Of a stretch of 35,595 nucleotides of DNA, positions 3,325-25,068 are shown piece after piece. The translations under genes and the position numbers were made by a program. Location: the NCBI GenBank assembly GCA_947586655.1, contig CANPXR010000002.1:1-35595 (forward strand). Direction: 5' to 3'. The notes below the pieces were generated by a model. It saw only the letters and a program-made list of their open reading frames with translations. It was not told the origin of the DNA and searched no databases. Each line of letters starts with the position of its first letter. Positions within the stretch are counted from its first letter, which is position 1. The DNA is from an uncultured Bacilli bacterium. GTDB taxonomy: Bacteria; Bacillota_I; Bacilli_A; RF39; UBA660.

Positions 3325-3332
3325 AATACCTC

Positions 3333-4834: not shown

Positions 4835-4836
4835 TA

Positions 4837-5352: not shown

Positions 5353-5353
5353 A

Positions 5354-6845: not shown

Positions 6846-6848
6846 TAT

Positions 6849-7574
6849 TTATTCACCTTCTTTTTTTTTATACGTAATTAACACGAAGAAAATCGTATAA
6901 AACATATTAACCATATATTTAATAGGTTTAATGATTCCGCCATGCATACTTTCTCCAGTTTCCCTAAGTCTCATTTTTACTGGAACTTCTTCTATGCTAT
7001 ATCCACTAAGAAGCATCTCTATAACAAGATTGGCATCCGGAAATTCTGGGTAAGCTCCCATTTTTGAATATCTTTCTATTACCCTTTTATTAAGGCACTG
7101 AAATCCTGACAACGGATCTGCAATTTTCTTTTTACAAAATAGTTTTACCAAAAAGGAAAACATTTTTGTTCCAATCTTTCTAAAGAAAGGGCATGGATAA
7201 CCCAAATCTTTTAAATACCTAGAGCCTATTACAATGTCACAATTATTTTTCTTAGCATGTTGGTATAATTTCTCAGCTTCTTTTGCTATGTGCTGCCCGT
7301 CTGCATCAAACTGTATTACATAATCGTAGCCATTATCAGCAGCATATTTAATTCCAGTTTGCACTGCCATAGCATATTTCATATTAAATATGTTACTAAT
7401 ACATTTAACGTTATTTGCTTCAACGATTTCCTTTGTATTATCTTTAGAACAGTCATTTATAACTAAAATATCGGCATAATCAACGTCTTTTTTTATTTCT
7501 TTTAAAACCTTTTCTATATTTTCAGCTTCATTATAAGCTGGAATTACAAATAATATTTTGTCTTTTTTTGTCAT
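6849..7574 (-). CDS. GT2 polyprenyl-phosphate glycosyltransferase (GtrB/CsbB/GacI-like)
   Basis: KILFVIPAYNEAENIEKVL...ILVINDCSKDNT...VIQFDADGQH...IVIGSRY plus a C-terminal TM helix. I trimmed the start to MTKKDK (ATG at 7574), because the track's N-terminal 19 aa overlap a terminator hairpin. Confidence 0.75.
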   Translation of the reverse strand: MTKKDKILFVIPAYNEAENIEKVLKEIKKDVDYADILVINDCSKDNTKEIVEANNVKCISNIFNMKYAMAVQTGIKYAADNGYDYVIQFDADGQHIAKEAEKLYQHAKKNNCDIVIGSRYLKDLGYPCPFFRKIGTKMFSFLVKLFCKKKIADPLSGFQCLNKRVIERYSKMGAYPEFPDANLVIEMLLSGYSIEEVPVKMRLRETGESMHGGIIKPIKYMVNMFYTIFFVLITYKKKEGE

Positions 7575-7596
7575 ACTATCACCAATAAAATTATAC

Positions 7597-7626
7597 AATA
7601 AAAAAAGCCTCTTTACAAGAAGCTTT
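7597..7626 (-). terminator. Intra-locus rho-independent terminator followed by an extended -10-like TTGTATAAT
   Basis: Minus strand reads AAAGCTTCTTGTAAAGAGGCTTT + TTTTTTT, then ATTGTATAATT. It shares an identical 18-mer with the site at 10424-10441. Confidence 0.55.
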
Positions 7627-7695
7627 AACAATCACTCGTATTAGCTTTAAATATAACAAATTAAGTTATTCTATCTTTTATAGATAAAGATACTT

Positions 7696-8817
7696 TTATT
7701 TATTTTCAATCAATTTAATCCATTGTTCCTTTATTTTTTTAATATCATAATTTTTTACGTGCTCTTTTGATTTTTTTTGTAATTCTAGAAGTCTTTGTTT
7801 GTCATTTAAAAGTTCTAATATCTTATTTGCCATTTTATTTATGTTTCTATCCTTTATTAAAACGCCACCAGAATCTTTAAGTACTTCACAAGCTCCCTTT
7901 GCACTATCAAATGCAACACACACAACGCCATAATTCATAGCCTCTAATAAAACTATTCCAAAAGCTTCACTATAAGATGTCATAACGTATAATGAACTAT
8001 CTAAATAATATTTTTTTAGTTCTTCTTGCGTCTTATATCCTAACATAACTACGCTATCGTTTAATTTTAATTCATTAATTAAATTAATAATTTCCTGTTT
8101 TTGATAACCATCTCCTGCTAGGTATAATTTTATCTTGCTATTTCTTTTTACTAATAGATCAATAACTCTAATCAAGTCTAAAAATCCCTTTTCCTTAGAT
8201 AATCTTCCAACTGAAATTAAATTTAATGAATCAAGTTTACTAACTTTGTTTGATATTTCATCCATAACATTAGGAATATAAATGCATCTATCAAATAATT
8301 CATCATAATGTTTTTTTTGTTGTTTTGATACTAATACCAAATAGTTAAAATTACTTACTGACTTACATATTTTTTTATCATATCCTAATTCTATGTCATA
8401 GGAGTTATGCTCAGTTGCAATTTTTAGCACGTCATCACGTTTTAAATACTTATTTACTATTTTATTATGGCTTAATCTTGTGGTAATTATGACGTCATAC
8501 TTTTCTTGCTTAATTTTCTTTTTAATTAACTTTGTTTCGATTAATTTCATTTTAGCCCTGCTAATAATTTCATTAGCAATCTTAAATATTTTCCCATTTA
8601 CTAATAAATCTTTAATGGACTCAAGCCTAAACTTATGGTCAAATATATATTCTATTTTAGCATCATAATAATTAAATGCCGGCTTATCTAACTCCTTATA
8701 ATTACATATTATTTTTACTTCATAATTTTCTTTAAACATCTTACATAGCGAAGAAATATATTTTTCTATTCCACCATATCCTAACGTTAATGAAAGTATT
8801 AATATTTTCTTTTTCAT
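7696..8817 (-). CDS. GT4 (GT-B, retaining) glycosyltransferase
   Basis: 373 aa with C-terminal ...TSYSEAFGIVLLEAMNYGVVCVAFD..., the E-x7-E region typical of GT4. Confidence 0.85.
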   Translation of the reverse strand: MKKKILILSLTLGYGGIEKYISSLCKMFKENYEVKIICNYKELDKPAFNYYDAKIEYIFDHKFRLESIKDLLVNGKIFKIANEIISRAKMKLIETKLIKKKIKQEKYDVIITTRLSHNKIVNKYLKRDDVLKIATEHNSYDIELGYDKKICKSVSNFNYLVLVSKQQKKHYDELFDRCIYIPNVMDEISNKVSKLDSLNLISVGRLSKEKGFLDLIRVIDLLVKRNSKIKLYLAGDGYQKQEIINLINELKLNDSVVMLGYKTQEELKKYYLDSSLYVMTSYSEAFGIVLLEAMNYGVVCVAFDSAKGACEVLKDSGGVLIKDRNINKMANKILELLNDKQRLLELQKKSKEHVKNYDIKKIKEQWIKLIENK

Positions 8818-8818
8818 A

Positions 8819-10351
8819 TTATTTATTCCTTTTAATAAAGTTTATTATTTTATTATACAAATGCCATGATCTACTATAACTTAAAGCATTATACTTATCA
8901 CAAGTTTCATAAAAACTAACTTTTTTATTGCCGGTTTCATTACTTTCTTTGTTGTTGATAACCGCTACTTGATAACATAAGCTCGCAATAGAATCACTAG
9001 GTAAATTTTCTTTTAACGCACTTTTCAAAACTTCTTTCATCTCATAATCAGTAATAGTATATTTATTTTTCTTATACTTATTTAAAACAATGTTTCCGCC
9101 ATGAAAGGCCTTTATGTACATTAAAAACTTATCATTTGTATCACTTATTTTTATTCCATAATTCTTAATTATAATACTATTATAATCAAGGTTAATAAAC
9201 TTAGAATACTTATCTAAACCAACTATGTTTTCATCTTCTAACAAGTAATTTGCTATTATTGATGCATCTGATACTTCTAGTATCTTCATCATTTTTTCAA
9301 AATCCATAACATCATTTTCTAAATAAATATATTTATACTCTATTGCTTTAACTTTTTCTTCCTGTGAAAAATATTTAAATCCATTTAATTTTTTATTATA
9401 GGTTCCTATTTCTACTATTTTTGTATCAACCTTTTTTGATATGTTTTGTATTTCCTTTATTCCTTTTTTTTCAGCATCTACTAACCAAAGAAGTTTATGA
9501 TTATTATTAGTTTTATAATCAGATAATATTTCATTCATTTTTTCTTTTACGTAACAAGCTGCCTTTATGTAATTAGAATTATACCTTAATTTTTTCTCAA
9601 GATTGTCTAAGAATAAATACTCAGAACCCTCATACATAATCTTTGTTTTTAAATCAATTTTAGAAACAAGATCCATATAAAATTGATTACCTTCAGTAAT
9701 AACTTTCTCACTTACGTTACTTACTTGTTTAGCATGAGCCCTTGATGATGCCAAAATTTCTTTCATGTGAATAAACTTATATTTTTTCATCATTTTAATC
9801 CATAAGTCATAATCTTGAACACACCTTAAGTTTTCATCAAATATAGAGCAATCTAAAAATGCTTTTTTAGGAATAAGAAGTGTAATACCATTAATATCCA
9901 TGTTTATTATTGAATTTAAGGGCTTTAACATGTATTCGTCATGATCTAAGATAACGTTTTTTATAAAATTATTATTTTCATCAATAACTTTATAATTAGA
10001 ATATAAAATAGTATTTTCATCATACTTCTTTAATTCGTTAATCTGTTTTAAAACCTTATCAGGTTCGTATAAATCATCATGACTAAGCCATGAAAAATAC
10101 TCTCCAGTCATGCTTTTAATACCCATGTTTAAAGCAGAAGATACGCCATTATTTTCCTTTTCAATATACTTTATTTTATTACCATAGGATAAAGCTATAT
10201 TTTTTGTTTTACCGCCATCATTAGAGCCATCATTAACTACTAAAACTTCAATATTATTATAAGTTTGATTAAGGGCACTATCAATGGCTTGTTTTAAATA
10301 ATTAGAACCATTATATACTGGAATTATTATGGACACTTTGAGATTTTTCAT
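8819..10351 (-). CDS. GT2 glycosyltransferase with ~280-aa C-terminal extension of unknown function
   Basis: KVSIIIPVYNGSNYLKQAIDSALNQTYNNIEVLVVNDGSNDGG...GEYFSWLSHDDLY. Paralogous to the N-terminal domains of 12336-14153 and 16357-17430. Its C-terminal YSRSWHLYNK resembles the SKSWKITKPLRW tail of 12336-14153. Confidence 0.8.
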   Translation of the reverse strand: MKNLKVSIIIPVYNGSNYLKQAIDSALNQTYNNIEVLVVNDGSNDGGKTKNIALSYGNKIKYIEKENNGVSSALNMGIKSMTGEYFSWLSHDDLYEPDKVLKQINELKKYDENTILYSNYKVIDENNNFIKNVILDHDEYMLKPLNSIINMDINGITLLIPKKAFLDCSIFDENLRCVQDYDLWIKMMKKYKFIHMKEILASSRAHAKQVSNVSEKVITEGNQFYMDLVSKIDLKTKIMYEGSEYLFLDNLEKKLRYNSNYIKAACYVKEKMNEILSDYKTNNNHKLLWLVDAEKKGIKEIQNISKKVDTKIVEIGTYNKKLNGFKYFSQEEKVKAIEYKYIYLENDVMDFEKMMKILEVSDASIIANYLLEDENIVGLDKYSKFINLDYNSIIIKNYGIKISDTNDKFLMYIKAFHGGNIVLNKYKKNKYTITDYEMKEVLKSALKENLPSDSIASLCYQVAVINNKESNETGNKKVSFYETCDKYNALSYSRSWHLYNKIINFIKRNK

Positions 10352-10431
10352 GTTTATCTACCTTCCTTATGAGCTAATCACCATACCAAGTAATTTTTTT
10401 CTTTATAATCATTTATTTAAACCAATTATAC

Positions 10432-10464
10432 AATAAAAAAAAAGGTATATCAACATACCTTTTT
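10432..10464 (-). terminator. Intra-locus rho-independent terminator + extended -10-like motif
   Basis: Minus strand reads AAAGGTATGTTGATATACCTTT followed by a T9 run, then ATTGTATAATTGG. The stem overlaps the stop codon of 10463-12334. Confidence 0.65.
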
Positions 10465-12334
10465 ACTCAACAAACTCAAGAATTGCATACGAGTCACTTT
10501 TTACTACCTTATACAACTGATTATCTTTTATATCACCATTTATAAATAATTTATTATATTGCTCTATAAATTGTTCATCAATATCAAATAAATAAACATA
10601 GTCATAATCTTTTATTAATTCTTGACGCCATGTATCACTTGTTTTATAAACGGTCCAAATATCTTCTTTAGAATAAGGTACTCCTATACTCCAAGCAAAA
10701 TTTTTATTCATTTTATAAGGCGTCAGTTCGTATTTTGCTATGTAATAATCTATTCCATTATCATTAGTAGATATGAAATATAAATAATCATTTTTCTTTA
10801 TGTACTTTTTAGATTTTTTACGAAACTCTTTATATGGTTCCCTAACATCTTTTGTTATATTAGAGTTTGCGGATGCAAAAACCGTTAAATTTAAAAACGT
10901 ACTAAAGCTAAAGTTTATGGTAAAGAACGCTAATAATAGCATTGTAAACACACCAAGATTTTTTTCATTTGAATGTGTGCAATCAACATAAAGGGCTATT
11001 ACTATGTATAATAATCCAAGCGCATAAGTTCCCATGTACCTAGTAAATGATGCTAGTCTAGCAGCTTCATACTCACTAAATATTGCTAAGTATGCTACTA
11101 ATAGTAAACCCGCGTAAGCTATTGCGCCCAATATACTAAATATAACTAAAACTTTATTAGTATTTTTACTTTCCTTTTTCGTATTTCGAATCAAAAAATA
11201 TCCAATTATGATTGTTATTATTAGAATAGTAACGTAAGATAGCGGAATAAAGGTACTTGTTAAGCTAGTATTAAAGGTAGCATCCGCAAAAGATGTTATA
11301 ACACCAGTTTGATAATCCATAAGGTTTAAAGTTATTAAATTTTTAACCGTGTTAATTATACTAGACCCACTACTTGAGCTATTAACGTTATTTAATGTTA
11401 ACGTAATAATCCAAACTATTTTAATTAAAAGAGCTGGAAGGATAGTTATAAATAACAAATAATTATCCTTTATGATATTTTTAATGTTAAATGTATTTCT
11501 AATAAACATGTTATCAATTAATATGATAGCAAAGGCTATTAGCATTAATACCAATCCAAAATCCTTTATTAAAATAAGCATCGAAAATGAAGCAATTAAA
11601 TTAATTATATCAAACTTATCTAGGCTTTTTTTACGATTAGAAAAATATGAATATAAACTATAGGCAAAAGCTAAACCTAAAACCGCATCAACGTATAACG
11701 TTTGATATACGGTAGGATAAAAGAACGTTGGAAGAAAAAGCAAGATGAAATATAAAACATAACTTAAAAAATTATTTTTCTTTTTGAAAGTTTTAAAGAT
11801 AGGAACAATAAGTGATATTATAATTAAATCCATCCCTACATAAAGCATTGATTCTCTAAATTCTCCGCATAGTTTTGTACAGAAATATTGAAATAAAGAA
11901 GTTCCAGAAAGATAAGTTTTTATCATAACCGTTGAGTCGCTACCCAAACCTAAATTTCCTAATCCATACATGTTTTTTACAACTAAAGCCCAATGCGAAA
12001 ACTCATCCCATGAATTAGCCAATTTACCAAATGACTGCCATACTATAATTAAATAACTAATTATAAATAAGATTAATCCAGTCGTTAAAACATTTTTATT
12101 CAAATCAATTTTTCTTTTAATAAATGAGTATACATTAATTATAAACAAAATCCAATTTAATATTAAAATAGTAATAAATCCAACATTTAATATAGAAAAA
12201 ACACCAAAAACAAACAAAATAAATATATATGAAAATATACTTAAGAATATTGTTTGTTCTATTTTCTTATTAAAAATAGTTGAATAAAATAATGACGTAT
12301 TTAATAATAAAAATATTAATAAAATATATTCCAT
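10463..12334 (-). CDS. Polytopic membrane protein (>10 TM) with C-terminal soluble domain; candidate GT-C-type extracytoplasmic glycosyltransferase; paralog of 20234-22111
   Basis: 623 aa. Shares SLFQYFCTKLCGEFRE (versus QLFQYFCMKILGNFQE in the paralog), the same topology and a C-terminal YDYVYLF-type domain. The family assignment is an inference. Confidence 0.45.
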   Translation of the reverse strand: MEYILLIFLLLNTSLFYSTIFNKKIEQTIFLSIFSYIFILFVFGVFSILNVGFITILILNWILFIINVYSFIKRKIDLNKNVLTTGLILFIISYLIIVWQSFGKLANSWDEFSHWALVVKNMYGLGNLGLGSDSTVMIKTYLSGTSLFQYFCTKLCGEFRESMLYVGMDLIIISLIVPIFKTFKKKNNFLSYVLYFILLFLPTFFYPTVYQTLYVDAVLGLAFAYSLYSYFSNRKKSLDKFDIINLIASFSMLILIKDFGLVLMLIAFAIILIDNMFIRNTFNIKNIIKDNYLLFITILPALLIKIVWIITLTLNNVNSSSSGSSIINTVKNLITLNLMDYQTGVITSFADATFNTSLTSTFIPLSYVTILIITIIIGYFLIRNTKKESKNTNKVLVIFSILGAIAYAGLLLVAYLAIFSEYEAARLASFTRYMGTYALGLLYIVIALYVDCTHSNEKNLGVFTMLLLAFFTINFSFSTFLNLTVFASANSNITKDVREPYKEFRKKSKKYIKKNDYLYFISTNDNGIDYYIAKYELTPYKMNKNFAWSIGVPYSKEDIWTVYKTSDTWRQELIKDYDYVYLFDIDEQFIEQYNKLFINGDIKDNQLYKVVKSDSYAILEFVE

Positions 12335-12335
12335 G

Positions 12336-14153
12336 TTATTTTCCTACCTTATTCTTTATTTTTTTTAATACTTTTTGGACGGTTACCTTAATTCCATTAG
12401 TTTTAAGAGAATAAATAAATAAACTAAACCATCTTAAAGGCTTTGTTATTTTCCATGATTTACTATTCAACATTGCCTGGCAGTTAGGACACGTAACAAA
12501 AGAAGTATTCAAACTTAATTTATTAGAACTACTAAGTTCACTAACAAAATTCACGTAATAACTTGCAAGAATTGCTGTTTCATAATCATACTTTTGTAAC
12601 TCAGGCTCATTTAAGACAAATTTTAAAATTGTCTTCATTCCAATTACCTGCTTTTTAGAATCATATGCTGAACTTTTTTCATTAGAATATACCGTCGATA
12701 ATGGAATATCTATCCCTAATAAGTTTTGATGCATTAAAATAGTAATCCAAAAACAAGTATCTTCTCCAATTACTAACTCTGGGTTAAACCTAAAGTTATT
12801 TTTATTTAAAAATTCTTTTTTTATCATAACCGTTGGGGTTGCAATTTGACAAGACCAAATGAGAGTTGGAATCATGTTACCCGTTTGCTTTCCACTATTA
12901 AATAATACCGTTTTATTAAAACCTTTTCTATAATACGACGTATGACTTACTAAAGATTTTGCTGCCACCATTTTTAAAAGCTGAATTTCTAACTTTTTTG
13001 GTTCAAAAACATCATCAGAGTCTAAAAAAGCAACGTAACTACCAGTAGCATTATCAATTCCTACGTTTCTAGCATTTGCCGCACCTTTATTTGGTTTGAC
13101 ATTTATTAATTTTATTTTTTTATTTTCTTTAGCTATTTTTTTTACTTCAGTAATATCGTCAGTAGAACCATCATTAATAACTAAAATTTCATAATTTTTA
13201 TGAGTTTGCTTTAACACTGATTTAATTGCTCTTATAACAATTTTACTTCTATTATAAAAAGGAATTATTACGGAAACTTTTATATCTTTAATAGAAGGTT
13301 CTATATCCTTTTCTATTTTTTGATACTTTTTCTTGCAGTGTTCTTCTGCAATATGATACGGAGTATCTTTTAAAAATTGTTCCATTTGAAAATAATAATT
13401 ATATTCACTACCCTCTAATTTTATTTTGGTTTTTAATGGTATGTCATCAATCATTTTTATCCAAAAAGAATTCCCTTCCGTTTCAACCCTAGGATTAGTA
13501 TTGCTTACTTGCTTATTATGATACCTAGACTTTGCTAAAACCTTAGGTATATGAATGAAAGAATACCCTTTCTTCATCATTTTATACCACAAATCATAAT
13601 CCTGTGCACACCTTAATGATTCATCAAAATCTCCGCACTCTTCAAAGGCTATTTTAGGAATTAACAAAGTTATACCATTTACCGTACCTCTTAAGAGTGC
13701 GTACTCTGGCTTTTCTTCTAGCATTTTATGGTCTTTTATTGCTTTTGATATTAATTTTCCTTCTACATCTATTAAATCATAATCAGAATATAATATAACT
13801 TTTTTTCCAAGTAATTTATTATCAATCAAGTAATTAATTTCTTCTTCTACTTTTTCAGGATAATATACGTCATCATGACTAAGCCATGAGAAATATTCTC
13901 CATTCATTTCTTTTAAAGCTAAGTTAAGAACCGTTGATACTCCACCATTTTCTTTTTTTATGTACCTTATTTTATTTCCATAAGATTTTGCAATTTTATC
14001 GGTTGCACCATGGTCAGGACTACCATCATTAATTACTAATATTTCTATGTTACTATAAGTTTGATTAAGAGCGCTGTCGATCGCTTCTTTCATGTATTTT
14101 TTACCCTTGTACACAGGAATTATTATTGTTACTTTTGGCTTTTTAATGTTCAC
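12336..14153 (-). CDS. Bifunctional glycosyltransferase with two GT2 domains
   Basis: Domain 1: KVTIIIPVYKGKKYMKEAIDSALNQTYSNIEILVINDGSPD...GEYFSWLSHDDVY. Domain 2: KVSVIIPFYNRSKIVIRAIKSVLKQTHKNYEILVINDGSTDD...AFLDSDDVF. C-terminal tail SKSWKITKPLRWF. Confidence 0.85.
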   Translation of the reverse strand: MNIKKPKVTIIIPVYKGKKYMKEAIDSALNQTYSNIEILVINDGSPDHGATDKIAKSYGNKIRYIKKENGGVSTVLNLALKEMNGEYFSWLSHDDVYYPEKVEEEINYLIDNKLLGKKVILYSDYDLIDVEGKLISKAIKDHKMLEEKPEYALLRGTVNGITLLIPKIAFEECGDFDESLRCAQDYDLWYKMMKKGYSFIHIPKVLAKSRYHNKQVSNTNPRVETEGNSFWIKMIDDIPLKTKIKLEGSEYNYYFQMEQFLKDTPYHIAEEHCKKKYQKIEKDIEPSIKDIKVSVIIPFYNRSKIVIRAIKSVLKQTHKNYEILVINDGSTDDITEVKKIAKENKKIKLINVKPNKGAANARNVGIDNATGSYVAFLDSDDVFEPKKLEIQLLKMVAAKSLVSHTSYYRKGFNKTVLFNSGKQTGNMIPTLIWSCQIATPTVMIKKEFLNKNNFRFNPELVIGEDTCFWITILMHQNLLGIDIPLSTVYSNEKSSAYDSKKQVIGMKTILKFVLNEPELQKYDYETAILASYYVNFVSELSSSNKLSLNTSFVTCPNCQAMLNSKSWKITKPLRWFSLFIYSLKTNGIKVTVQKVLKKIKNKVGK

Positions 14154-14893
14154 CTTTCATCACTCTCTTTACGACTTTTTAATATGTTCTCAACCCTAAT
14201 TAGATCCTTAGGAGTATCTACAGACATTGAATCAGAATCAACCTTAACTACTTTTACACTTTTTTTATTTTCAATAAATCTTAACATTTCTAATCCCTCA
14301 GCCAATTCTATATTACCCGGCTTAGTTTTTATAAAAAAGTTAAGGGCTTTTTTAGTATAGGCATATAATCCAATATTTTTATAAAAATTATATGATAAAA
14401 TTTCTTTAGGGTAAGGAATTGGAGATCTAGACATAAAAATCAAATCATCATTATCGTTTATTGCTAACTTTATAGTTGTACTATTAACGACATCTATAGG
14501 ATTTTTAAATTTTGTTGCGAGCATACAAGTAGATATTTTATTATCATTTAACATAGCATTTATAACTAGTGATACTTCCTCTGGTTTTATAAGAGGTTCA
14601 TCTCCCATTAAAACAGCATAAATATCTCCTTTTATTTTTCTTGAAACTTCACCAACTCGATCTGTACCAGTTAAATGCTTATCGGATGTCATTATAACAT
14701 TTATCCCTAGTTCATTACATTTTTTTACAATCAAATCACTTTCTGTTGCAACATACACCTCATCAAGTTCCTTTACTTTTTTTGCATTATTATATACCCA
14801 CCATATCATTGGTTTTCCTAAAATATTCATTAGTGGTTTTCCAAGAAACCTAGAAGATTTATATCTTGCTGGAATTATTCCTATTATTTTCAT
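14150..14893 (-). CDS. kdsB: KdsB-type cytidylyltransferase (CMP-Kdo synthetase family, CTP_transf_3)
   Basis: IIPARYKSSRFLGKPLMNILGKPMIWWV, HLTGTDRVGEV, MGDEPLI, MSRSPIPY and GLYAY match the E. coli KdsB blocks IIPARYASTRLPGKPL..INGKPMI, HQSGTERLAEV, QGDEP.I, FSRATIP and GIYGY. NeuA/PseF-type enzymes have PARGGSK instead. Confidence 0.75.
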   Translation of the reverse strand: MKIIGIIPARYKSSRFLGKPLMNILGKPMIWWVYNNAKKVKELDEVYVATESDLIVKKCNELGINVIMTSDKHLTGTDRVGEVSRKIKGDIYAVLMGDEPLIKPEEVSLVINAMLNDNKISTCMLATKFKNPIDVVNSTTIKLAINDNDDLIFMSRSPIPYPKEILSYNFYKNIGLYAYTKKALNFFIKTKPGNIELAEGLEMLRFIENKKSVKVVKVDSDSMSVDTPKDLIRVENILKSRKESDER

Positions 14894-14894
14894 A

Positions 14895-16226
14895 TTACTT
14901 ACTTCCTTTCACTCCAAGAATTTTATGTTTTAGATTCCTAATACGATTTATAAATTTATTAATAATATTAAAGTTTTTCGTGTTTTCATCACCTTTTATA
15001 TATTTTTGCTCAATTTCTGTTAACCTATTAGATAATAGTTTTTCCCTTTGTTGTAACAAAGTAATTTCATCTTCTAAGTGCTGTTTAATAGCTACGTTTT
15101 CATAATATATACTTAACATTCCACTAGCGAGTTTTTGTGAAAGTTCGATGTCATAAACTTTAGAATGAAACTTCTTATTTTTATCTAACAACTCTGAAAA
15201 ACCAATTTTCTCACCAAAGAAAAATTTAGTTCTTAAAGGGTTAATCATACTATTAACCGAACTGCAAAACCCTCCAATTAATAAATTCTTATTATCCCAT
15301 AATAATGGTTCTAACGGAGTTTTTTCAGGAATTATTGCTATATTATGATTTTTTAAGTAATCTTCTAAATATTTATTATCAGAAACTGGAAATAAAGGGT
15401 GTGCCTTAAATATAAATGTGTAATCTTCACCATAATCGCGTAAGACTTGATTAATCAAATTTTCATATATTATTGACGTAAGATGTTTAGTGCCAAAATC
15501 ATAAGTGCCAATAATAATTATATAATTATTATTAAGATTGGATACAATCTTAATGTCCCCGAATATACATTTTTTATATTTATCAGATAATTTAGAGTAC
15601 ATTTCCTCTATATTTAAATTTTTTAAATTCATTTCATTTTTGTATTCAGCGGATACATTTTTATTATATAGCAAATTTATAAAAGGAATTAAATATTCTA
15701 CATTTTTTTGAGTAGACAACCAAAAACAATAATTCTCTATTTTCAATAAATCATTGTCGTTATTTCCGTTTTTTATACCATTAATTAAATTTTCCCATCT
15801 AGATTTTTGATAATTTTTATCATCTTTTTTTATGTCATTATACATATACTGTGAAATATTTCCTTCACTTAACAAAATAATATTATTTATATCTTTAATT
15901 GAATTAGATAAAATAAATGGTTTTAAATAGAATTGTACCCTACTATCATCAATAAAAATATTAAATTTAGCTTTTTTATCATTTTTCTTTATTTCCTCTA
16001 TATTTAATTTTATATTATCGCATGTATTTTTTAAAAATTCAGTATCAAATCCTTTTGTTTGATAATAAAGTTTTAAATTTTTAGGACAATATTTACTATT
16101 TATATCGAAAAAATTATCTCTATAATACCAAATATAGCTAGGAGTATTATCTAAAAATACGTTTATTTGTGCATACATAGTTGGAACACTACCAAACACA
16201 ATGTAAAAATTATAGTTATTTGCCAT
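14895..16226 (-). CDS. Putative ulosonic-acid (sialyl-/Kdo-type) transferase-like protein with C-terminal coiled coil
   Basis: ~443 aa. Contains ..LLSEGNIS.. and ..FIFKAHPLFP.. about 155 residues apart, resembling the D/E-D/E-G and HP motifs of bacterial sialyl-/polysialyl-/beta-Kdo transferases. The C-terminal HLEDEITLLQQREKLLSNRLTEIEQKY is coiled-coil-like. It lies immediately upstream of the kdsB-type gene. I set the start at the ATG at 16226 (AAGGAG 8 nt upstream). The call is weak. Confidence 0.35.
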   Translation of the reverse strand: MANNYNFYIVFGSVPTMYAQINVFLDNTPSYIWYYRDNFFDINSKYCPKNLKLYYQTKGFDTEFLKNTCDNIKLNIEEIKKNDKKAKFNIFIDDSRVQFYLKPFILSNSIKDINNIILLSEGNISQYMYNDIKKDDKNYQKSRWENLINGIKNGNNDNDLLKIENYCFWLSTQKNVEYLIPFINLLYNKNVSAEYKNEMNLKNLNIEEMYSKLSDKYKKCIFGDIKIVSNLNNNYIIIIGTYDFGTKHLTSIIYENLINQVLRDYGEDYTFIFKAHPLFPVSDNKYLEDYLKNHNIAIIPEKTPLEPLLWDNKNLLIGGFCSSVNSMINPLRTKFFFGEKIGFSELLDKNKKFHSKVYDIELSQKLASGMLSIYYENVAIKQHLEDEITLLQQREKLLSNRLTEIEQKYIKGDENTKNFNIINKFINRIRNLKHKILGVKGSK

Positions 16227-16356
16227 TTTCACGTCTCCTTACTTAAATCTATTAATAAATAATTTAATTACCTAGTACCTTACGTTTCTCAAAATATTTT
16301 CAGAATTTTCTTAAATAAAACAAATTATATACATTTCAACTATTTTTATTAAACTC

Positions 16357-17430
16357 TTATTTTTTTGTCCTTAAAGCTTTCATTTTTTCTTCCATATAAA
16401 CATTATTATTATTTTTATAAAAGTTTTCCATAACCGAATAAAATGAAGCCTCATTACTTTCTAATCTATTAATAACTTCTTTAGAAAGATTTTTTATTAT
16501 TTCTAAATTTTTTTCATCAGTTTCTATTTTTATTTTTGGATTAGTATTAGTAACTTGCTTTGAATGACTCCTTATTATAGCGGTATCATATGGTATGTTA
16601 ATAAATTTATATTCTTTTATCAACCTGGCCCACATATCTCTTTCTTGGGTAATCCTTTGAGTTTCGGAAAACAATCCGTACTTATCAAACGCTATTTTTG
16701 GTATTAATACTGAACCTCCATTTATTTCACCTTGAAGAAGTGTATATTCATTTTTTAAAACAGATGTCTTATAATCAAAGCAATGTAACTCAGCAATTAT
16801 TGTTTCATTAACCTTAAGTGTACCATTTTCATCTACTATTTTAAAAGATGAAAAAGGAATACATTTATCATTTCCTTCTATAGATATAAAGTCTACTAAA
16901 TTTTGAATATGAGTTGGCGCAATCAAATCATCATGACTAAGCCAAGCAAAATATTCACCTTTCATCTTTGAAATACCATAATTAAGTGCAGAGGACACGC
17001 CCCCATTTTCCTTTTCATAGTATCTTATTTTCTTTTTAAAACCATCTGCTACTTTTTTCGTTAGTCCGTTATCATTTGATCCATCATTAACCACGATTAC
17101 TTCTATGTTTTTGTAAGTTTGCTTTAAGGCACTTTCAATTGCTTCTTTAAGATAATTACTTCCGTTATAAACTGGAATTATTATCGATACTAAAGGATTA
17201 AAATTTTTCTTTTTCTTTTTACTATTAAAATACATATCATATAAAAGTTGATTCGTATAATTATTAAATTCACAAACTTTACACTCTAAGGCCTTATAAG
17301 TTGCGAACAAATCTCTTTCAACCATATAATTTTTATTTATAACCTCACTAAGTTCTTCCCCACTTACTAAATCTAATTTTTTAAAAATTTTCTTTAAGAA
17401 CCTTTTTATCAACTTTTTCAAAATTATCAC
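16357..17430 (-). CDS. GT2 glycosyltransferase (third member of the GEYF[SA]WLSHDD paralog set)
   Basis: VSIIIPVYNGSNYLKEAIESALKQTYKNIEVIVVNDGSNDNG...GEYFAWLSHDDL. The true start is uncertain, since the ~80-aa N-terminal extension has no clear SD. Confidence 0.8.
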   Translation of the reverse strand: MIILKKLIKRFLKKIFKKLDLVSGEELSEVINKNYMVERDLFATYKALECKVCEFNNYTNQLLYDMYFNSKKKKKNFNPLVSIIIPVYNGSNYLKEAIESALKQTYKNIEVIVVNDGSNDNGLTKKVADGFKKKIRYYEKENGGVSSALNYGISKMKGEYFAWLSHDDLIAPTHIQNLVDFISIEGNDKCIPFSSFKIVDENGTLKVNETIIAELHCFDYKTSVLKNEYTLLQGEINGGSVLIPKIAFDKYGLFSETQRITQERDMWARLIKEYKFINIPYDTAIIRSHSKQVTNTNPKIKIETDEKNLEIIKNLSKEVINRLESNEASFYSVMENFYKNNNNVYMEEKMKALRTKK

Positions 17431-17470
17431 CTAAAATAATTATATAATATATGAGTTTTTTATTCAAGAC

Positions 17471-17497
17471 AAATAAAAACAGCAAATTATTGCTGTT
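17471..17497 (-). terminator. Rho-independent terminator after the capG-like gene
   Basis: Minus strand reads AACAGCAATAATTTGCTGTT + TTTATTTG, and the stem includes the stop codon. It is followed by TTGAAT-17 nt-TATAAT (17467-17439). Confidence 0.6.
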
Positions 17498-18614
17498 TTT
17501 TCCACGTTCTACTATTAACGATGTTATAATAACTTTGAATTATTTTTACAACTTTAAGTGATACGTTAGTATCCTTATAATCTCTTACTAAGTTATCTTT
17601 TCTTTCTTCCCTTGAATTAACCGCAAGTTCAATCGAATTTAGTATATCTCTTTCATTTATTCCACCTAAAACAATACTTCCAGCATCCAAAGCTTCCGGT
17701 CTTTCAGTACTTGTTCTTAATGAAATTCCTGGGAAGTTTAGTATATCGCTTTCTTCTGGAATAGTACCGCTATCTGATAAAACACAATATGAATGTTTTT
17801 GCAAATTAACATAGTCAAAAAATCCTAATGGTTCCAAATTCTTTATTAGAGGATTTAATTTTACGTTACTTTCCTTTATTTTTTTAGCAGTTCTTGGATG
17901 AGTTGAAAATATAATTGGCATATCATAAGTTTCGGCTACTTTATTTAAACTATTCATTAAACTTTCAAAGTTCTTTTTGATATCTATATTTTCTTCTCTA
18001 TGTGCACTAACTACAAAATATTTTTTATCCTCTAAATTTAAACGCGTTAGCACATCTGAAGAATCTATACTTTTCATATTTTTATATAAAACTTCCTTCA
18101 TAGGAGAACCAGTTACGTATAAAAAATCATTTTTTATACCTTCATTAATTAAATATCTTCTAGCATTTTCTGTATAAGCTAAATTAACATCACTTACATG
18201 GTCTACTATTCTTCTGTTAATTTCTTCAGGCACATTAAAATCAAAGCACCTGTTACCCGCTTCCATATGAAAAATAGGAACTTTTAATCTTTTTGCAGAA
18301 TAAGCCGCTAAACAACTATTAGTATCCCCTAAAACTAATAAAGCATCTGGTTTTTCTTTATCTATTACTTCATATGTTTTTGCAATTATATTTCCTACTG
18401 TTTCTCCTAAATTTTTACCAGGAGCATCTAAATAATAGTCTGGGTTTTTAAGACCAAACTCCTTAAAGAATATTTCATTTAAAGTATAGTCATAATTTTG
18501 ACCCGTATGAACTAATACCAAGTCAAAATATTTATCAATTGCCTTTATTGTTTCTGATAATCTAATTATTTCAGGTCTTGTACCAACAACAACCATAACT
18601 TTTAATTTTTTCAT
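17487..18614 (-). CDS. fnlC: UDP-2-acetamido-2,6-dideoxy-L-talose 2-epimerase (CapG/FnlC; non-hydrolysing UDP-GlcNAc 2-epimerase family)
   Basis: MKKLKVMVVVGTRPEIIRLSETIKAIDKYFDLVLVHTGQNYDYTLNEIFF...LGDTNSCLAAYSAKRLKVPIFHMEAGNRCFDFNVPEEINRRIVDHVSDVNL is nearly colinear with S. aureus Cap5G. I set the start at the second ATG (GAAGGA SD). Confidence 0.85.
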   Translation of the reverse strand: MKKLKVMVVVGTRPEIIRLSETIKAIDKYFDLVLVHTGQNYDYTLNEIFFKEFGLKNPDYYLDAPGKNLGETVGNIIAKTYEVIDKEKPDALLVLGDTNSCLAAYSAKRLKVPIFHMEAGNRCFDFNVPEEINRRIVDHVSDVNLAYTENARRYLINEGIKNDFLYVTGSPMKEVLYKNMKSIDSSDVLTRLNLEDKKYFVVSAHREENIDIKKNFESLMNSLNKVAETYDMPIIFSTHPRTAKKIKESNVKLNPLIKNLEPLGFFDYVNLQKHSYCVLSDSGTIPEESDILNFPGISLRTSTERPEALDAGSIVLGGINERDILNSIELAVNSREERKDNLVRDYKDTNVSLKVVKIIQSYYNIVNSRTWKKQQ

Positions 18615-18633
18615 ATTATTTCCTTCTTTCATA

Positions 18634-20232
18634 CTATATTACTTTTTTTAAATCACTATTTTTAATAGGATACAAACATTTTCCGGTAATAATGATTTTT
18701 TCATTTTCACTTTTTAATGGTACTTTTATCCACTCCTTATCTATAAATATATTATTTTTAGGTATACCACTTATATTTTTTACTCTTTTCTTTTTTTGAT
18801 TATTTAATACACAATAAATCCTTAAACTTTTTATTTTATATCCCGCTGAAAAAGATGGACTCCATAACATATAAGATGCGTTTTTAATTAACTCATACTC
18901 ATATCTAAAAGCACCCTTTTTAAATACCCTATTATCAACAAATGATTTAATGAGCTTATCTTTAGAATCCAAAAATTTTATTTCTGGTTTTATACATATA
19001 TGTATCACTTTTTCTTTTGATATTATTTTTTCAAGATTTATCTTTCTTTCTAACTCCTTATAATAATCACTTTTAGGTATGGTTTTTTTCCTGTAAGATA
19101 ATTTCAACAACTTAGAATCACTAGGCAAAAATAAATTTCCACTTATGTTTATTTTTTTTAGTATTTTACCTGGTTTTGTTGGAATGTACATGGTTGGACA
19201 CTCACCATTAAAGAAGAAAGTTCCATCTTTATTTAAAAATGAACCAAAAGCTAAGCCTAAATCAATTATTTCATTACTTTTATCTTTATAAGTAACACTT
19301 ACTTCTAAATTATTTATCGCAAAGCCCCACAAAATAGAAGGTTCCCAGCAAATTACGTCTCTTGCTCCAGTTACTTCATAAGTTTGTGAAAAATTACCTG
19401 GTTTAAATTTTTTATCATACAATTTATAAGATGAGCCTTTATGTTCTAACTCATAATTAGCTATTATAGCAGATTCCATTTCAAACGATGATATTATAGA
19501 TTGAGAAAGAGCACGCTCCCACTCATTATAAAATCCTCTTTTTGAAAAATCAAACTTTATGTTATTATCGTCAAAAATCTCTTTGGTTGCTTTCAACCAT
19601 TTTCCAGAGAACAAACCGTACTTCGTAAGGTCATAAGGAAATATTTGCGATTGATCATTTAGCATTATATAAAATTCGTCTTTTTTATATAACGTATTAC
19701 TTCGCTTAGTAGCATTAATTTCCCATTCCCAAATGTTTTCCTTGTAACCTTCGGTGTATTTTAACAACTGTTTTTTATTCCAAATTCCCGCTATGGCAGC
19801 TACTTTAGAATTAGAAACCGAAGACCTTTTCGCAAAGCCATCGTACATACAATTTTTAGAATCTGAGTATACTGGCCAAAACGTAAATGTAGCTATTTTT
19901 TCATCTTGTTTTAACCAATTTAAACAATCATTAATTTTATTAGAATTAACATAATCATAAAGGAAAAAATCATCTAACATTAAAATAACATAATCAGAAC
20001 TGATTTTTTTAAGAACGTCCGTTATACGTTCGGTCCAGGAACAATTAGGATTATCGGGATGAATATTTTTAATTTTAAAATATTTATTTTTATAATTTGT
20101 TGATTCTGTACTTAAGACTATATCATAAGGTAAGTCTTTCCAATATTTATTAAGCAACTTAAAAAATGGTTCTAATATATCAACATAAGAATCACAACTA
20201 TTTATTAGTAACGTACAAGAATTGCTAGCCAT
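18634..20232 (-). CDS. Unknown protein: GT-A-like N-terminal domain (DDF motif) + internally duplicated C-terminal beta-rich domain
   Basis: 532 aa with LLINSCDSYVDILEPFF...YVILMLDDFFLY. Two C-terminal segments share a pattern: Y.V.....V.CWEPS...GF.I..L.V.V versus YEYEL....YMLWSPSFSAGYKIKSLRIYCV. I recognise no family. Confidence 0.3.
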   Translation of the reverse strand: MASNSCTLLINSCDSYVDILEPFFKLLNKYWKDLPYDIVLSTESTNYKNKYFKIKNIHPDNPNCSWTERITDVLKKISSDYVILMLDDFFLYDYVNSNKINDCLNWLKQDEKIATFTFWPVYSDSKNCMYDGFAKRSSVSNSKVAAIAGIWNKKQLLKYTEGYKENIWEWEINATKRSNTLYKKDEFYIMLNDQSQIFPYDLTKYGLFSGKWLKATKEIFDDNNIKFDFSKRGFYNEWERALSQSIISSFEMESAIIANYELEHKGSSYKLYDKKFKPGNFSQTYEVTGARDVICWEPSILWGFAINNLEVSVTYKDKSNEIIDLGLAFGSFLNKDGTFFFNGECPTMYIPTKPGKILKKINISGNLFLPSDSKLLKLSYRKKTIPKSDYYKELERKINLEKIISKEKVIHICIKPEIKFLDSKDKLIKSFVDNRVFKKGAFRYEYELIKNASYMLWSPSFSAGYKIKSLRIYCVLNNQKKKRVKNISGIPKNNIFIDKEWIKVPLKSENEKIIITGKCLYPIKNSDLKKVI

Positions 20233-20233
20233 T

Positions 20234-22111
20234 TTATAACTCCTTCAGAATTATTTTATTTTCGCCTATGATTTCATATAGTGTTTCTTCTTTAATAGTA
20301 GTATCAAAAGCACTTTCTAAAAAAGTTTTCATTTTATCATCGTAGTTATAGACAAAAACATAATCATAATTTTCTTTTAATAAATATTTTACGAATTCTT
20401 CTTTATCCTGATAATTATTTACACTACCAAAGTAATTTTTAATTTTAATGTTATTATCTATAAGTAAATTATACAATCTATGATGCATAATAGGAAAATC
20501 TTCATAAGTAGCAAAAAATATATTAACCCCGTCTTTAGAAGGTTTAACTTTTGATAATATTTTTTTCTCATCTTTCATAGTCTCATTTAGTATTTTTTTA
20601 TTATAGTCATAAGAATAGTCGTTACCCTGCAACAGAGTTGAGTCTCCAATGCTTCTAAAAGGAATAAAAACTATAATTGATACTAAAACAATGGCTAATT
20701 TCATAAACTTTTTATCATGCTTTAATACGTTTTCAATAATTACCAAACCCAAGAACATAAAAATTGCTAAAAGGGTTGTGTTATTATAACGTTCAAAACA
20801 CAATACGTCACCATACTTTAAGGCATACAAAAATATAAGAGCAAACCAATAAGCAAAACTTGAACCAATTATTCCTACGGACGGAAACAAATATTTCAAG
20901 CGCTGTTTTTTAGAAGACAAAATAATTATCACAATTGCCGTTAGAACATAAAATAAAATAATATTTATATATGTTAGATATTTATTTATTTCTATTATGC
21001 TGGAGCCAACCATACTCCTAGTGTAAGAAGTGTATAAGTCATCTTTAATAATTCTTTTCTGTTCATCAGTTGGTTTAGTAATTAACTGAGTCATTTTACT
21101 AGGAGTAAACACGGAAGAAACACTACCAGCTTTATCATAAGTTCTTAAGCTTAAGCTCCAACTAAACATTAAAAACAATAAAAATATTATCGGAATAACT
21201 ATGAGTTTATAATTTTTTATCTTTCGATAGTCTTTATTTTTATAATAAAGTATTTCCGTTACGATGGAAACAAATATAGAAATCAAGCAAAAAATTATTC
21301 CGTTTTCTTTTAATAAATATACTAATGCTATTGATAATAAATAATTAATTAAATTAAATTTATTTTTATATGGATTCTTTGTTAATAAATAAAAATTATA
21401 TCCAATTGCTAAACCTAAAATAGAATCTACATATAAACTTTTATAATAAAAACCCCAATCAAGTCCGTTATTATAAAATATCATCGGTGTAAAAATAACA
21501 AATATCATGTATGGGATAATAACATAAAAATTTTTCCATTTTATATTTTTTAATAAAGGTAAAAATAATACGGCTCCTAATAAGCAAAAGGAAAAATGCA
21601 AATAATTTTCTTGAAAATTTCCCAAGATTTTCATACAAAAGTACTGAAATAGTTGAATTCCTGGTAAATATGTATCCATTCCTTTAATAGCGTATAATAA
21701 AGTGTCATTACCAAATTGAATATTATCAGTGTAATACAATGCTTTAGGATATGCACCCCATAGCCTTAATTCGTCAAATAAATATAATAAGGAATCTTTT
21801 GTTAAATACCATATTATTAAATATAATAATGTAAAGCATAAAGCTCCAGGAGTAATTAATCTTTTTAAGGCTTCTTTAACGTTCTTTTTCCTTACTAAAT
21901 AGAATGCTGATGTAGCATAGAGTAAAAAAGATATAAAAAGAGCTAAAAATAATCCTATTTTTAAAAGGTCAATAATATAAAATAAATATAAAAAGAATAT
22001 AACTCCTAAGAAATATAAGGGAATACCTTCTTCAAAATTTTTATCTAAAACACAGGCGCAAAAAACTCCAAAGGATGAAAGAACTATAAATAAAAGTATA
22101 AAACCTAACAT
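20234..22111 (-). CDS. Polytopic membrane protein, paralog of 10463-12334 (candidate GT-C-type transferase)
   Basis: 625 aa with >10 hydrophobic helices, the QLFQYFCMKILGNFQE block and a C-terminal soluble domain ending ..NYDYVFVYNYDD... Confidence 0.45.
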   Translation of the reverse strand: MLGFILLFIVLSSFGVFCACVLDKNFEEGIPLYFLGVIFFLYLFYIIDLLKIGLFLALFISFLLYATSAFYLVRKKNVKEALKRLITPGALCFTLLYLIIWYLTKDSLLYLFDELRLWGAYPKALYYTDNIQFGNDTLLYAIKGMDTYLPGIQLFQYFCMKILGNFQENYLHFSFCLLGAVLFLPLLKNIKWKNFYVIIPYMIFVIFTPMIFYNNGLDWGFYYKSLYVDSILGLAIGYNFYLLTKNPYKNKFNLINYLLSIALVYLLKENGIIFCLISIFVSIVTEILYYKNKDYRKIKNYKLIVIPIIFLLFLMFSWSLSLRTYDKAGSVSSVFTPSKMTQLITKPTDEQKRIIKDDLYTSYTRSMVGSSIIEINKYLTYINIILFYVLTAIVIIILSSKKQRLKYLFPSVGIIGSSFAYWFALIFLYALKYGDVLCFERYNNTTLLAIFMFLGLVIIENVLKHDKKFMKLAIVLVSIIVFIPFRSIGDSTLLQGNDYSYDYNKKILNETMKDEKKILSKVKPSKDGVNIFFATYEDFPIMHHRLYNLLIDNNIKIKNYFGSVNNYQDKEEFVKYLLKENYDYVFVYNYDDKMKTFLESAFDTTIKEETLYEIIGENKIILKEL

Positions 22112-22156
22112 AATAACTCCTTCCTTTATTTAATTTTAAGTATTTTCTAGTTAGTA

Positions 22157-23257: not shown

Positions 23258-23278
23258 AAAACTATCCTTTCTACCAAA

Positions 23279-23304
23279 TTAGCCTTAGTTTAATCTAAGG
23301 CTAA
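23279..23304 (-). promoter_or_regulatory. Perfect 10-bp-stem intercistronic hairpin between the capE-like and capF-like genes
   Basis: TTAGCCTTAG-TTTAAT-CTAAGGCTAA. Only a weak U-tract follows (TTTGG) on the minus strand, so it is more likely an mRNA stability or processing element than a full terminator. Confidence 0.4.
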
Positions 23305-23311
23305 TACATCA

Positions 23312-24307: not shown

Positions 24308-24324
24308 AATTGATACCTTCCTTT

Positions 24325-25059: not shown

Positions 25060-25068
25060 CTTACCCTC

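Follow-up and report, generated by a model that had tools for sequence, protein, structure and literature searches.

We analyzed a 35,595-nucleotide stretch of DNA (hereafter called the window) from an uncultured Bacilli bacterium of the RF39/UBA660 lineage (GenBank assembly GCA_947586655.1, contig CANPXR010000002.1, forward strand), focusing on two adjoining genes of a glycan locus that includes an ATP-binding cassette (ABC) transporter. The first gene (14895-16226, minus strand) encodes a sialyltransferase-like GT-B glycosyltransferase, referred to below as the transferase, and the second (14150-14893, minus strand) encodes a putative KdsB-family CTP:ulosonate cytidylyltransferase (CT) of 247 amino acids (aa). 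Together, the two genes probably make up a donor-and-transferase module, through which an acidic 2-ulosonic sugar would be incorporated into an ABC-exported cell-wall heteroglycan, and we place the probability of this reading at about 0.6, on the basis of the sequences and of a structural model. The core enzymology, in which a CMP-ulosonate is made and is then transferred with inversion, appears somewhat more probable than not. Both enzymes are outside the characterised families, and in a Gram-positive setting.

The longest open reading frame (ORF) of the transferase extends to a GTG at 16232 and comprises 445 aa, and the residue numbers of the transferase follow this frame throughout. Because an AAGGAG box is located 9 nucleotides (nt) 5' of the ATG at 16226, this ATG is almost certainly the real start codon, and the protein has 443 aa. 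A single nucleotide separates the TAA stop codon of the transferase from the ATG of the CT, whose stop codon overlaps, as GTGA, the GTG start codon of a 605-aa double-GT2 glycosyltransferase (12336-14153, minus strand, two GT2 domains); a 623-aa polytopic membrane protein without a family match (10463-12334, minus strand) starts 1 nt past the double-GT2 stop codon. Owing to these short gaps and overlaps, the four genes are considered to be translationally coupled, which agrees with the coupling of the transferase and the CT that had been described in an earlier note made from the letters of the window alone.

The AlphaFold model of the transferase (predicted local distance difference test score, pLDDT, 89; predicted template modelling score, pTM, 0.80) has a two-Rossmann GT-B fold. 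In the Foldseek analysis of this model, the best 13 PDB matches were all GT80 enzymes, with E values from 4.8e-11 to 2.9e-8 and an identity of about 15%; they included 2zwi (4.8e-11; TM-score 0.56-0.65, reaching 0.65 when normalised to the target) and PmST1 (2ex0, 1.7e-9). These were followed by the GT38 polysialyltransferase 5wcn (3.4e-7), by generic GT-B enzymes and then by the GT52 enzyme NST, and no GT99 or GT107 structure was present among the 50 best matches. The sialyltransferase-like GT-B fold that the earlier note had expected of the 443-aa protein is thus borne out by the structural matches. Of the five families with which that note had proposed to compare 14895-16226, structure gave a positive answer for GT80, GT38 and GT52 and a negative one for GT99 and GT107, and Pfam searches with the protein itself were also negative. 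Namely, there was no match to PF11477 (GT80, PM0188) even at E <= 1, none to PF07388 (GT38) and none to PF05159 (Capsule_synth) at E <= 1, and a search against the PDB sequences returned nothing at E <= 10.

The relatives of the transferase were more informative. A search of 5.8 billion proteins gave 21 close homologues, all of them without a name, and a public protein of identical length is 99% identical to the transferase of the window; the profile built from the close homologues collected 345 representatives among 1.84 billion proteins. Four of the 21 close homologues match PF07388 (best E value 1.4e-10), and 88 distant family members include 20 that match PF11477 (best 1.5e-10) and 14 that match PF07388. 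Additionally, the family profile matches the Photobacterium GT80 enzyme 4r9v at 5e-4 across KxHP...PxE...GGxxSS. The transferase family is therefore rare and unclassified, and is located between the CAZy families GT80 and GT38. A profile comparison with the GT52/polysialyltransferase-like enzyme of a further locus (L013) was not significant (probability 0.7%), and only the HP...PxE stretch was aligned. As a separate observation, distant relatives within the set P0148-P0274 carry BACON (nine proteins), SLH (five), Flg_new (three), cadherin-like (three) and dockerin (one) domains; such domains are normally extracellular or surface markers, and are odd for enzymes whose CMP-sugar donor should be cytoplasmic.

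The predicted catalytic and CMP-binding residues of the transferase lie within 15258-15866 (minus strand). The sequence SEG corresponds to residues 122-124 and AHP to residues 277-279, and the residues of interest are E123 (15864-15866), H278-P279 (15396-15401), E308 (15309-15311) and S324-S325 (15258-15263). In the family alignment of 88 relatives, position 123 is D or E in 82 and G124 is found in 87; H278-P279 is kept in 86, E308 in 86 (with D in the remaining two), S324 in 74, and S or T at position 325 in 87. Such conservation argues that the SEG...AHP motifs, first noticed from the sequence alone, are real and not due to chance. In the model, the loop containing E123 is situated between a strand (115-121) and a helix (125-132), similarly to the E153 loop of MhPST. 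In MhPST and PmST1, the D/E-D/E-G loop provides the base, the histidine of HP contacts the phosphate, a glutamate contacts the ribose hydroxyls and a Ser/Thr pair contacts the phosphate (PMC5517516). The distances from H to E and from E to SS are 30 and 16 residues in the transferase, compared with 32 and 16 in MhPST (H291/E323/S339-T340; PMC5517516). The motif set of the inverting sialyltransferases (GT38/GT52/GT80) is hence present in the transferase, with the difference that its first motif position is Ser instead of Asp or Glu. From the sequence motifs and the model, the transferase is predicted to be a CMP-dependent, inverting enzyme with an alpha-ketoside product.

The similarity to GT38 also bears on another reading, in which the transferase would act processively, as the GT38 polysialyltransferases do, and would polymerise the acid into a homopolymer for export by the ABC transporter. 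This reading agrees with the GT38 Pfam matches of the close and distant homologues and with the structural match to 5wcn, and GT38 enzymes also act in ABC-dependent systems. However, a heteropolymer is implied by the further glycosyltransferases of the locus, at least six in number, and by its two nucleotide-sugar pathways, and the monofunctional GT80 enzymes match the model better than GT38 does. We therefore regard a homopolymer as highly improbable.

The second gene of the pair encodes a CTP_transf_3 protein (PF02348, 9.6e-44). The sequence blocks on which its assignment had originally been based were all found in the protein, IIPARYKSSRFLGKPL at residues 6-21, TGTDRV at residues 75-80 and GDEPLI at residues 97-102. 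The protein passes two NCBIfam KdsB subfamily models (NF009905, 261.4 bits against a cutoff of 255; NF003952, 246.4 bits against a cutoff of 193), and scores only 39 bits with the PseF model, so its placement in the KdsB family and not with the NeuA/PseF type can be retained. The closest relative of solved structure is E. coli KpsU (1gq9; 2.4e-46, 36.6% identity), and the CTP/Mg2+ residues R10, R15, K19, G97-D98-E99-P100 and D226 are kept in the alignment with KpsU. The CT thus has the CTP_transf_3 fold, the PxRxxSxRxxGK loop, GDEP and the C-terminal Asp for the two Mg2+ ions. On the other hand, it fails the cutoffs of the kdsB equivalog models (TIGR00466, 147.3 bits compared with 155.2; NF003948, 152.8 bits compared with 281).

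In order to describe the sugar pocket, we compared the CT with five solved KdsB proteins, namely E. coli KpsU, two Acinetobacter entries (4fcu and 3pol) and the enzymes of Vibrio and Aquifex. All five contain QGDEP, [KR]HxGxY and LEQLR, whereas the CT has MGDEP, KNIGLY and LEMLR in their place, so that Q/H/Q is replaced by M96/N173/M203 (codons 14606-14608, 14375-14377 and 14285-14287). The replacement is a feature of the whole group, since among the 120 nearest CT homologues M is found in 119, N in 118, and L or M in all 120 at these three positions. [quoted passage not shown] For the other two motifs, Q98 of E. coli KdsB, which is the glutamine of QGDEP, hydrogen-bonds the C5 hydroxyl of Kdo (PMC12199768), and RHIGVYAY has been described as a substrate-binding motif (PMC7717453). 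Owing to the replacement of Q/H/Q and to the failed equivalog cutoffs, we consider the CT to belong to a distinct KdsB-like subfamily. As the pocket for the sugar has been altered and has become more hydrophobic, the acid would most likely be a relative of Kdo, and not Kdo itself.

These data bear directly on the possibility, close to what the earlier note had suggested, that genuine CMP-Kdo serves as the donor and gives rise to a Kdo cap like that of WbbB (beta-Kdo, added by a retaining enzyme). The passed KdsB subfamily models agree with it, as does the fact that the best solved relative of the CT is a capsule CMP-Kdo synthetase, and the HP motif is shared with the beta-Kdo transferases (PMC5517516). 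Nevertheless, the equivalog models failed and the Q, H and Q of the Kdo-contact motifs are replaced, so Kdo as the sugar activated by the CT is unproven and, judging from the sequence, rather unlikely. Moreover, kdsA, kdsC and kdsD were found neither in the window nor in 18 further loci examined. A retaining beta-Kdo mechanism is unlikely for the transferase as well, because its model matches the inverting GT80, GT38 and GT52 enzymes, with GT99 and GT107 absent from the 50 best matches, and it has no Capsule_synth match. The WbbB-like beta-Kdo cap is consequently not upheld, and we consider a genuine CMP-Kdo donor to be improbable.

The absence from the window of kdsA, kdsC, kdsD, neuB and neuC, which had been reported from the first inspection, was confirmed for ORFs of at least 100 aa: none of them contains a DAHP_synth_1/KdsA, NeuB, SIS or KdsC-type domain, and the sole Epimerase_2 gene (17487-18632, minus strand) is of the wecB type (270 bits, cutoff 210) and not of the NeuC type (90 bits, cutoff 236). 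Two other routes to an acidic sugar were considered and rejected. A nonulosonic-acid route from the FnlA/B/C-like genes of the locus would proceed through a hydrolysing, NeuC-type step, and was rejected on account of the wecB-type epimerase and of the lack of a NeuB-type synthase. A pseudaminic-acid route was considered for the aminotransferase and GNAT genes at 3333-5352, whose best NCBIfam models are PseC and PseH. Both matches are far below cutoff, and the route was rejected because these genes are located together with RmlA, RmlB and FdtA, a dTDP-3-acetamido-sugar pathway, in the strain-variable end of the locus.

The genomic contexts of related CTs suggest a different origin of the acid. 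Outside the clade of the transferase, CTs of the same M/N/L subfamily were examined in four Firmicutes loci, namely L011/L012, L013/L014 (from a metagenome-assembled genome, MAG, of Anaeroplasmataceae), L015 (from a Ruminococcus MAG) and L018. In 4/4 of these loci the CT adjoins an HMGL-like domain protein, about 520-530 aa long, the regions concerned being L011 7510-10410, L013 10001-12962, L015 10001-15122 and L018 10001-12347. The N-terminal half of this protein is DmpG-like, resembling 4-hydroxy-2-oxovalerate (pyruvate) aldolases, with a match to the 'putative aldolase' 3dxi at 2.5e-31, and its C-terminal half gives weak, below-threshold matches to MptE-like and CST-I sialyltransferase-like models. 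A HAD phosphatase is present in 3/4 loci (L011/L012, L013/L014 and L015) and was not seen in L018; that of L013 passes the KdsC/Kdn-9-P-phosphatase-type model TIGR01670 (115 bits, cutoff 107). In none of the loci examined does kdsA adjoin a CT of the subfamily. By tblastn, the aldolase-like and phosphatase genes of these loci were found neither in the window nor in L001-L010. Among the loci that contain the transferase, an aldolase was identified in L007 only (from a mouse-gut Bacilli MAG), in which a gene for an HpcH/HpaI class II pyruvate aldolase (12119-12883, 3.9e-32) lies directly after the pair and ahead of the genes for the ABC transporter; the CT of L007 is of another subtype, with Q/Q/I at the three pocket positions. 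The contexts of the CT relatives suggest that 3-deoxy-2-ulosonic acids are produced through aldolase routes, and not by KdsA or NeuB. The combination of a CT with an aldolase-like protein may constitute an undescribed route to ulosonic acids that does without KdsA and NeuB. A ulosonate-type substrate is likewise supported by the KdsC-type HAD and pyruvate-aldolase-like neighbours of the same-subfamily CTs. Our literature searches revealed neither a KdsB-type enzyme described as acting in the synthesis of Gram-positive wall polysaccharides nor an aldolase-CT module.

The pair, together with its ABC-transporter and Fnl-like neighbourhood, recurs in about eight lineages. Wherever the sequence of a related locus was long enough (L003, L004, L005, L007, L008/L009, L016 and L017), the transferase was paired with a CT and accompanied by Fnl-like genes, down to a transferase identity of 37%. 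A CTP_transf_3 gene is located directly downstream of the transferase gene in the window, L003, L004, L007, L016 and L017, and two genes off in L005 and L008/L009, with one copy of the pair per locus. This conserved adjacency supports a CMP-activated donor for the transferase. The pair is carried by MAGs of uncultured gut Bacilli, obtained from samples of rabbit, mouse and other origin and including a closed chromosome of 1.31 Mb (OZ006981.1), and by one uncultured Clostridium sp. MAG. The polymer had been called clostridial on first inspection, a term that should be abandoned, since the closest genomes are those of the uncultured gut Bacilli.

Based on these results, a mechanism in three steps can be proposed. 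In the first step, which follows from the family of the CT and from its conserved catalytic residues, CTP and a free 3-deoxy-2-ulosonic acid would be condensed to a CMP-beta-ulosonate; the acid would be supplied from outside the locus, in which no source gene is encoded. In the second step, as judged from fold and motifs, the transferase would bind the CMP donor through H278/P279, E308 and S324/S325 and, with E123 as the base, would transfer the sugar with inversion to give an alpha-ketoside. The acceptor would be an undecaprenyl-linked glycan that the GT2 and GT4 enzymes encoded nearby assemble at the cytoplasmic face and that would contain an L-FucNAc-type (N-acetyl-L-fucosamine) sugar derived from the FnlA/B/C-like genes. 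In the third step, the coiled-coil helix and the basic amphipathic helix of the transferase would keep the enzyme, which is probably oligomeric, at the membrane next to the polymerase and Wzm/Wzt.

It is important to mention that several points weigh against the proposed module. The transferase of the window matches no Pfam or NCBIfam model, and its sequence is tied to GT80 and GT38 only through its relatives and the family profile. The acid-making enzyme, whether KdsA, NeuB or an aldolase, is present neither in the window nor in most of the related loci, so that the pathway as seen is incomplete. In L004 (1466-3459), a transferase with 52% identity to that of the window has as its partner not a KdsB-like CT but a PseF-like one (76 bits, below cutoff), and the genes downstream of the pair are otherwise the same as in the window. 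The identity of the donor is therefore not fixed within the family, a CMP donor apparently being constant and the sugar variable. Finally, the donor, the acceptor, the anomeric outcome and the membrane binding are all predictions.

The C-terminal tail of the transferase (residues 366-445; 14898-15137, minus strand) had been described as a coiled coil, and its helical character is confirmed. In the AlphaFold model, residues 366-439 form a single helix, with confidence falling toward the end. A heptad-like stretch of about 40 residues (approximately 375-412) is followed by a KGDEN break and then by an amphipathic helix at residues 421-438 (DNA 14919-14972), which, with its hydrophobic moment of 0.62 and net charge of +5, is, judging from its sequence, typical of a peripheral membrane anchor. 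Among the homologues, the tail is 61-111 aa long and always ends in a K/R-rich amphipathic stretch, and the indels between homologues are not heptad multiples in size. Basic amphipathic C-terminal ends are common to the transferase, the 510-aa GT2 protein (...SRSWHLYNKIINFIKRNK) and the 605-aa double-GT2 protein (...SKSWKITKPLRWF...KVLKKIKNKVGK), the similar stretches being located at 14898-14972, 8819-8875 and 12336-12470, respectively. These similar ends fit a shared location at the membrane, and may represent a shared signal for membrane binding or for docking in a complex. In some homologues of the transferase, a P-L/I-x-W/F-I/L-K/R version of the basic end was observed.

The tail is relevant to the question of where the acid is placed on the glycan. 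One possibility is that it is a non-reducing terminal cap, added once per chain, that stops polymerisation, with the coiled coil acting as a spacer or ruler; the transferase would then be a Gram-positive counterpart of WbdD, WbbB and ORF7 of K. pneumoniae O4. A terminal cap is plausible, if tentative, because the layout resembles that of the known coiled-coil terminators. WbdD has the same order of catalytic domain, coiled coil and C-terminal amphipathic helix as that predicted for the transferase, ORF7 of serotype O4 is a Kdo terminator that stands alone and contains a coiled coil, and a coiled coil is called a consistent marker of terminators by the authors of that work (PMC11231755). The dependence of the locus on an ABC transporter, the single copy of the pair per locus and the variable tail length among homologues (61-111 aa) point in the same direction. 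However, all the proven terminator systems have a Wzt carbohydrate-binding module that reads the cap (PMC11231755), whereas the Wzt/TagH-type ABC ATPase of the window (24325-25059, minus strand) has only 244 aa, with an ABC domain at residues 43-174, nothing beyond it and no C-terminal module. The lack of a cap-binding domain in this ATPase, already noticed at first reading, is thus confirmed. Furthermore, the heptad region, with about 40 residues, is far shorter than the extended rulers (PMC11231755), the homologue indels are not heptad multiples, and the sequence data do not separate a cap from a residue of the repeat unit.

About equally likely, and just as tentative, is that each repeat unit contains the acid in stoichiometric amount, either internally or in a side branch. 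An anionic, phosphate-free wall polymer would then owe its negative charge to the acid, in a role similar to that of teichulosonic acids. [quoted passage not shown] Domain scans of the locus revealed no TagF/TagB-type genes for glycerol or ribitol phosphate, nor was any other evident source of negative charge seen there. The pair lies in the midst of polymerising GT2 genes, with coupling to the double-GT2 gene, and a Wzt protein without a cap-reading module fits export that is independent of a terminal mark. Against an internal or branch residue stands the conserved combination of a coiled coil and a membrane helix, which is seen more typically in terminators than in transferases that add a residue of the repeat unit (PMC11231755).

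In its most far-reaching form, the proposal would be that gut Bacilli cap or decorate an ABC-exported wall polysaccharide with an undescribed 3-deoxy-2-ulosonic acid that is made without KdsA or NeuB (through an aldolase route or salvage) and activated by an M/N/M KdsB-like enzyme, that the transferase represents a third, structurally independent family of coiled-coil terminators (GT80/GT38-like), and that chain length is set without a cap-reading transporter module. Taken as a whole, this combination is unlikely.

The donor-and-transferase module was also compared with characterised systems. The transferase shares with the GT80 enzymes (PmST1 of Pasteurella multocida and the Photobacterium alpha-2,3/2,6-sialyltransferases) the GT-B fold, which gave its best structural matches, and a similar spacing of the base, HP, Glu and Ser-Ser residues; it differs from them in its low identity (about 15%) and lack of a PF11477 match, in a partner CT that is of the KdsB type and not NeuA, in its C-terminal coiled coil and amphipathic helix, and in its location in a Gram-positive ABC wall-glycan locus as opposed to lipooligosaccharide sialylation. 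With the capsular polysialyltransferases of GT38 (MhPST of Mannheimia haemolytica; NeuS/SiaD) it has in common the logic of the D/E-D/E-G, HP, E and S/T motifs (PMC5517516), their near-identical spacing and export by an ABC transporter. In contrast to GT38, the S-E-G motif starts with Ser, the fold match is weaker than to GT80, a heteropolymer is predicted and nothing points to processive polymerisation.

Similarly to ORF7 of K. pneumoniae O4 (GT137), which is a CMP-Kdo-dependent chain terminator, the transferase is a single-function enzyme with a predicted C-terminal coiled coil in an ABC-dependent locus, and a CMP-ulosonate donor is predicted for it. For ORF7, the association with the membrane, with which it fractionates, and the alpha-Kdo product have been shown, whereas both properties are only predicted for the protein of the window (PMC11231755). 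The GT137 model resembles no known glycosyltransferase and has a methyltransferase-like strand order (PMC11231755), by which description the canonical GT-B protein of the window is set apart. Moreover, the O4 Wzt has a cap-binding module, which the ATPase of the window lacks, and O4 draws on the normal Kdo supply of the cell. The N-terminal domain of WbbB (GT99) and KpsC/KpsS (GT107) also use a CMP-activated ulosonic acid, as predicted here, and have an HP motif, and WbbB is a terminator with a coiled-coil ruler; these enzymes are, however, retaining by way of an Asp nucleophile, whereas the transferase keeps a base loop of the inverting type and has neither a fold match nor a Capsule_synth match to them. 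As regards the CMP-Kdo synthetases KdsB/KpsU (EC 2.7.7.38), the CT shares the fold, the CTP/Mg2+ residues and 36.6% identity with KpsU, but it has an M/N/M in place of a Q/H/Q pocket, is below the equivalog cutoffs, and belongs to a subfamily whose members in the four loci described above adjoin DmpG-like aldolase-domain proteins.

The remainder of the locus is in agreement with a heteroglycan. The window is AT-rich (G+C about 23-31%), and its genes lie almost exclusively on the minus strand, among them the 357-aa GT2, Fnl-like, ABC transporter, polyprenyl-phosphate sugar synthase-like and DUF2304 genes described below. The double-GT2 protein is likely the polymerising enzyme; its gene is kept downstream of the transferase-CT pair in L003, L004 and L017 and is present in L005 and L007. 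The 623-aa membrane protein, with orthologues in L003, L004 and L017, is a candidate for an extracytoplasmic decorating enzyme of the GT-C type. Immediately upstream of the pair, a 357-aa GT2 glycosyltransferase (16357-17430) is conserved in L003 and L005, and is preceded by the gene of the non-hydrolysing UDP-N-acetylhexosamine 2-epimerase (FnlC/CapG-like) mentioned above as the sole Epimerase_2 gene. By their sequences, this epimerase, an FnlA/CapE-like 4,6-dehydratase/5-epimerase (23312-24307; FnlA, 586 bits, below the equivalog cutoff) and an FnlB/CapF/WbcJ-like reductase (22157-23257; WbcJ-type reductase, 425 bits, below the equivalog cutoff) form a predicted pathway to UDP-2-acetamido-2,6-dideoxy-L-hexose (L-FucNAc type). 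A Wzm-type ABC-2 permease (25069-25875) is encoded beside the ABC ATPase. A polyprenyl-phosphate sugar synthase-like GT2 (6849-7631; PpgS-like, 91 bits) and its partner, a small DUF2304 membrane protein (6507-6845), are predicted components of a post-export decoration. In total, six GT2 genes and one GT4 gene were counted among the glycosyltransferases of the locus, and a 532-aa soluble protein encoded within 18634-22111 gives a faint match to the glycosyltransferase-like model TIGR04440 only.

Further observations concern the variable parts of the locus. The 623-aa protein and a 625-aa polytopic membrane protein (10463-12334 and within 18634-22111) are paralogues, and neither has a Pfam or NCBIfam family at accepted thresholds. 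L003, which is otherwise collinear, is without the 625-aa and 532-aa genes, and YfhO-family GT-C proteins are encoded downstream in the related loci L007 and L008. The distal end (1-6506) contains RmlA, RmlB, FdtA, a DegT aminotransferase, a GNAT protein and a GT2-EamA fusion, and is strain-variable; a rabbit MAG, GCA_947628435.1, is 98.6% identical to the window at 6507-26230 and has other genes past that (GT4 and a GFO_IDH_MocA oxidoreductase). A scan for promoters and terminators gave 56 sites, compared with 44 +/- 6 expected, and was uninformative in this AT-rich DNA.

Elsewhere in the window, the sporulation gene spoIVA is split (29554-35595). Only residues 118-491 are encoded (29554-30675), with 95% identity to the intact 491-aa gene of L003, and codons 1-117 were not found anywhere in the window. 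Directly past the break are genes for a large serine recombinase (30735-32321), for an HTH_36 protein (33153-33467) and for a cI-like HTH_3 repressor (34171-34674). The arrangement resembles the insertion into spoIVA of a phage-like or skin-like element with a length of at least 4.9 kb.

To our knowledge, the control of length and of end chemistry in ABC-exported wall polysaccharides of Gram-positive bacteria is poorly understood, and the mechanistic models all derive from Gram-negative O antigens. The pair described here is a concrete candidate in this respect, namely a sialyltransferase-like, coiled-coil enzyme that is predicted to be membrane-tethered and is wired to its own donor-activating enzyme. 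It also draws attention to a large group of Firmicutes proteins that annotation pipelines would name 'CMP-Kdo synthetase' and whose pocket is unlike that of true KdsB. Because the pocket differs and the neighbours are aldolase-like and not KdsA, Kdo is probably the wrong substrate name for this KdsB-like group. An uncharacterised acidic sugar may thus be common on the surfaces of gut Gram-positive bacteria, where it would be relevant to host recognition, phage receptors and metabolic labelling.

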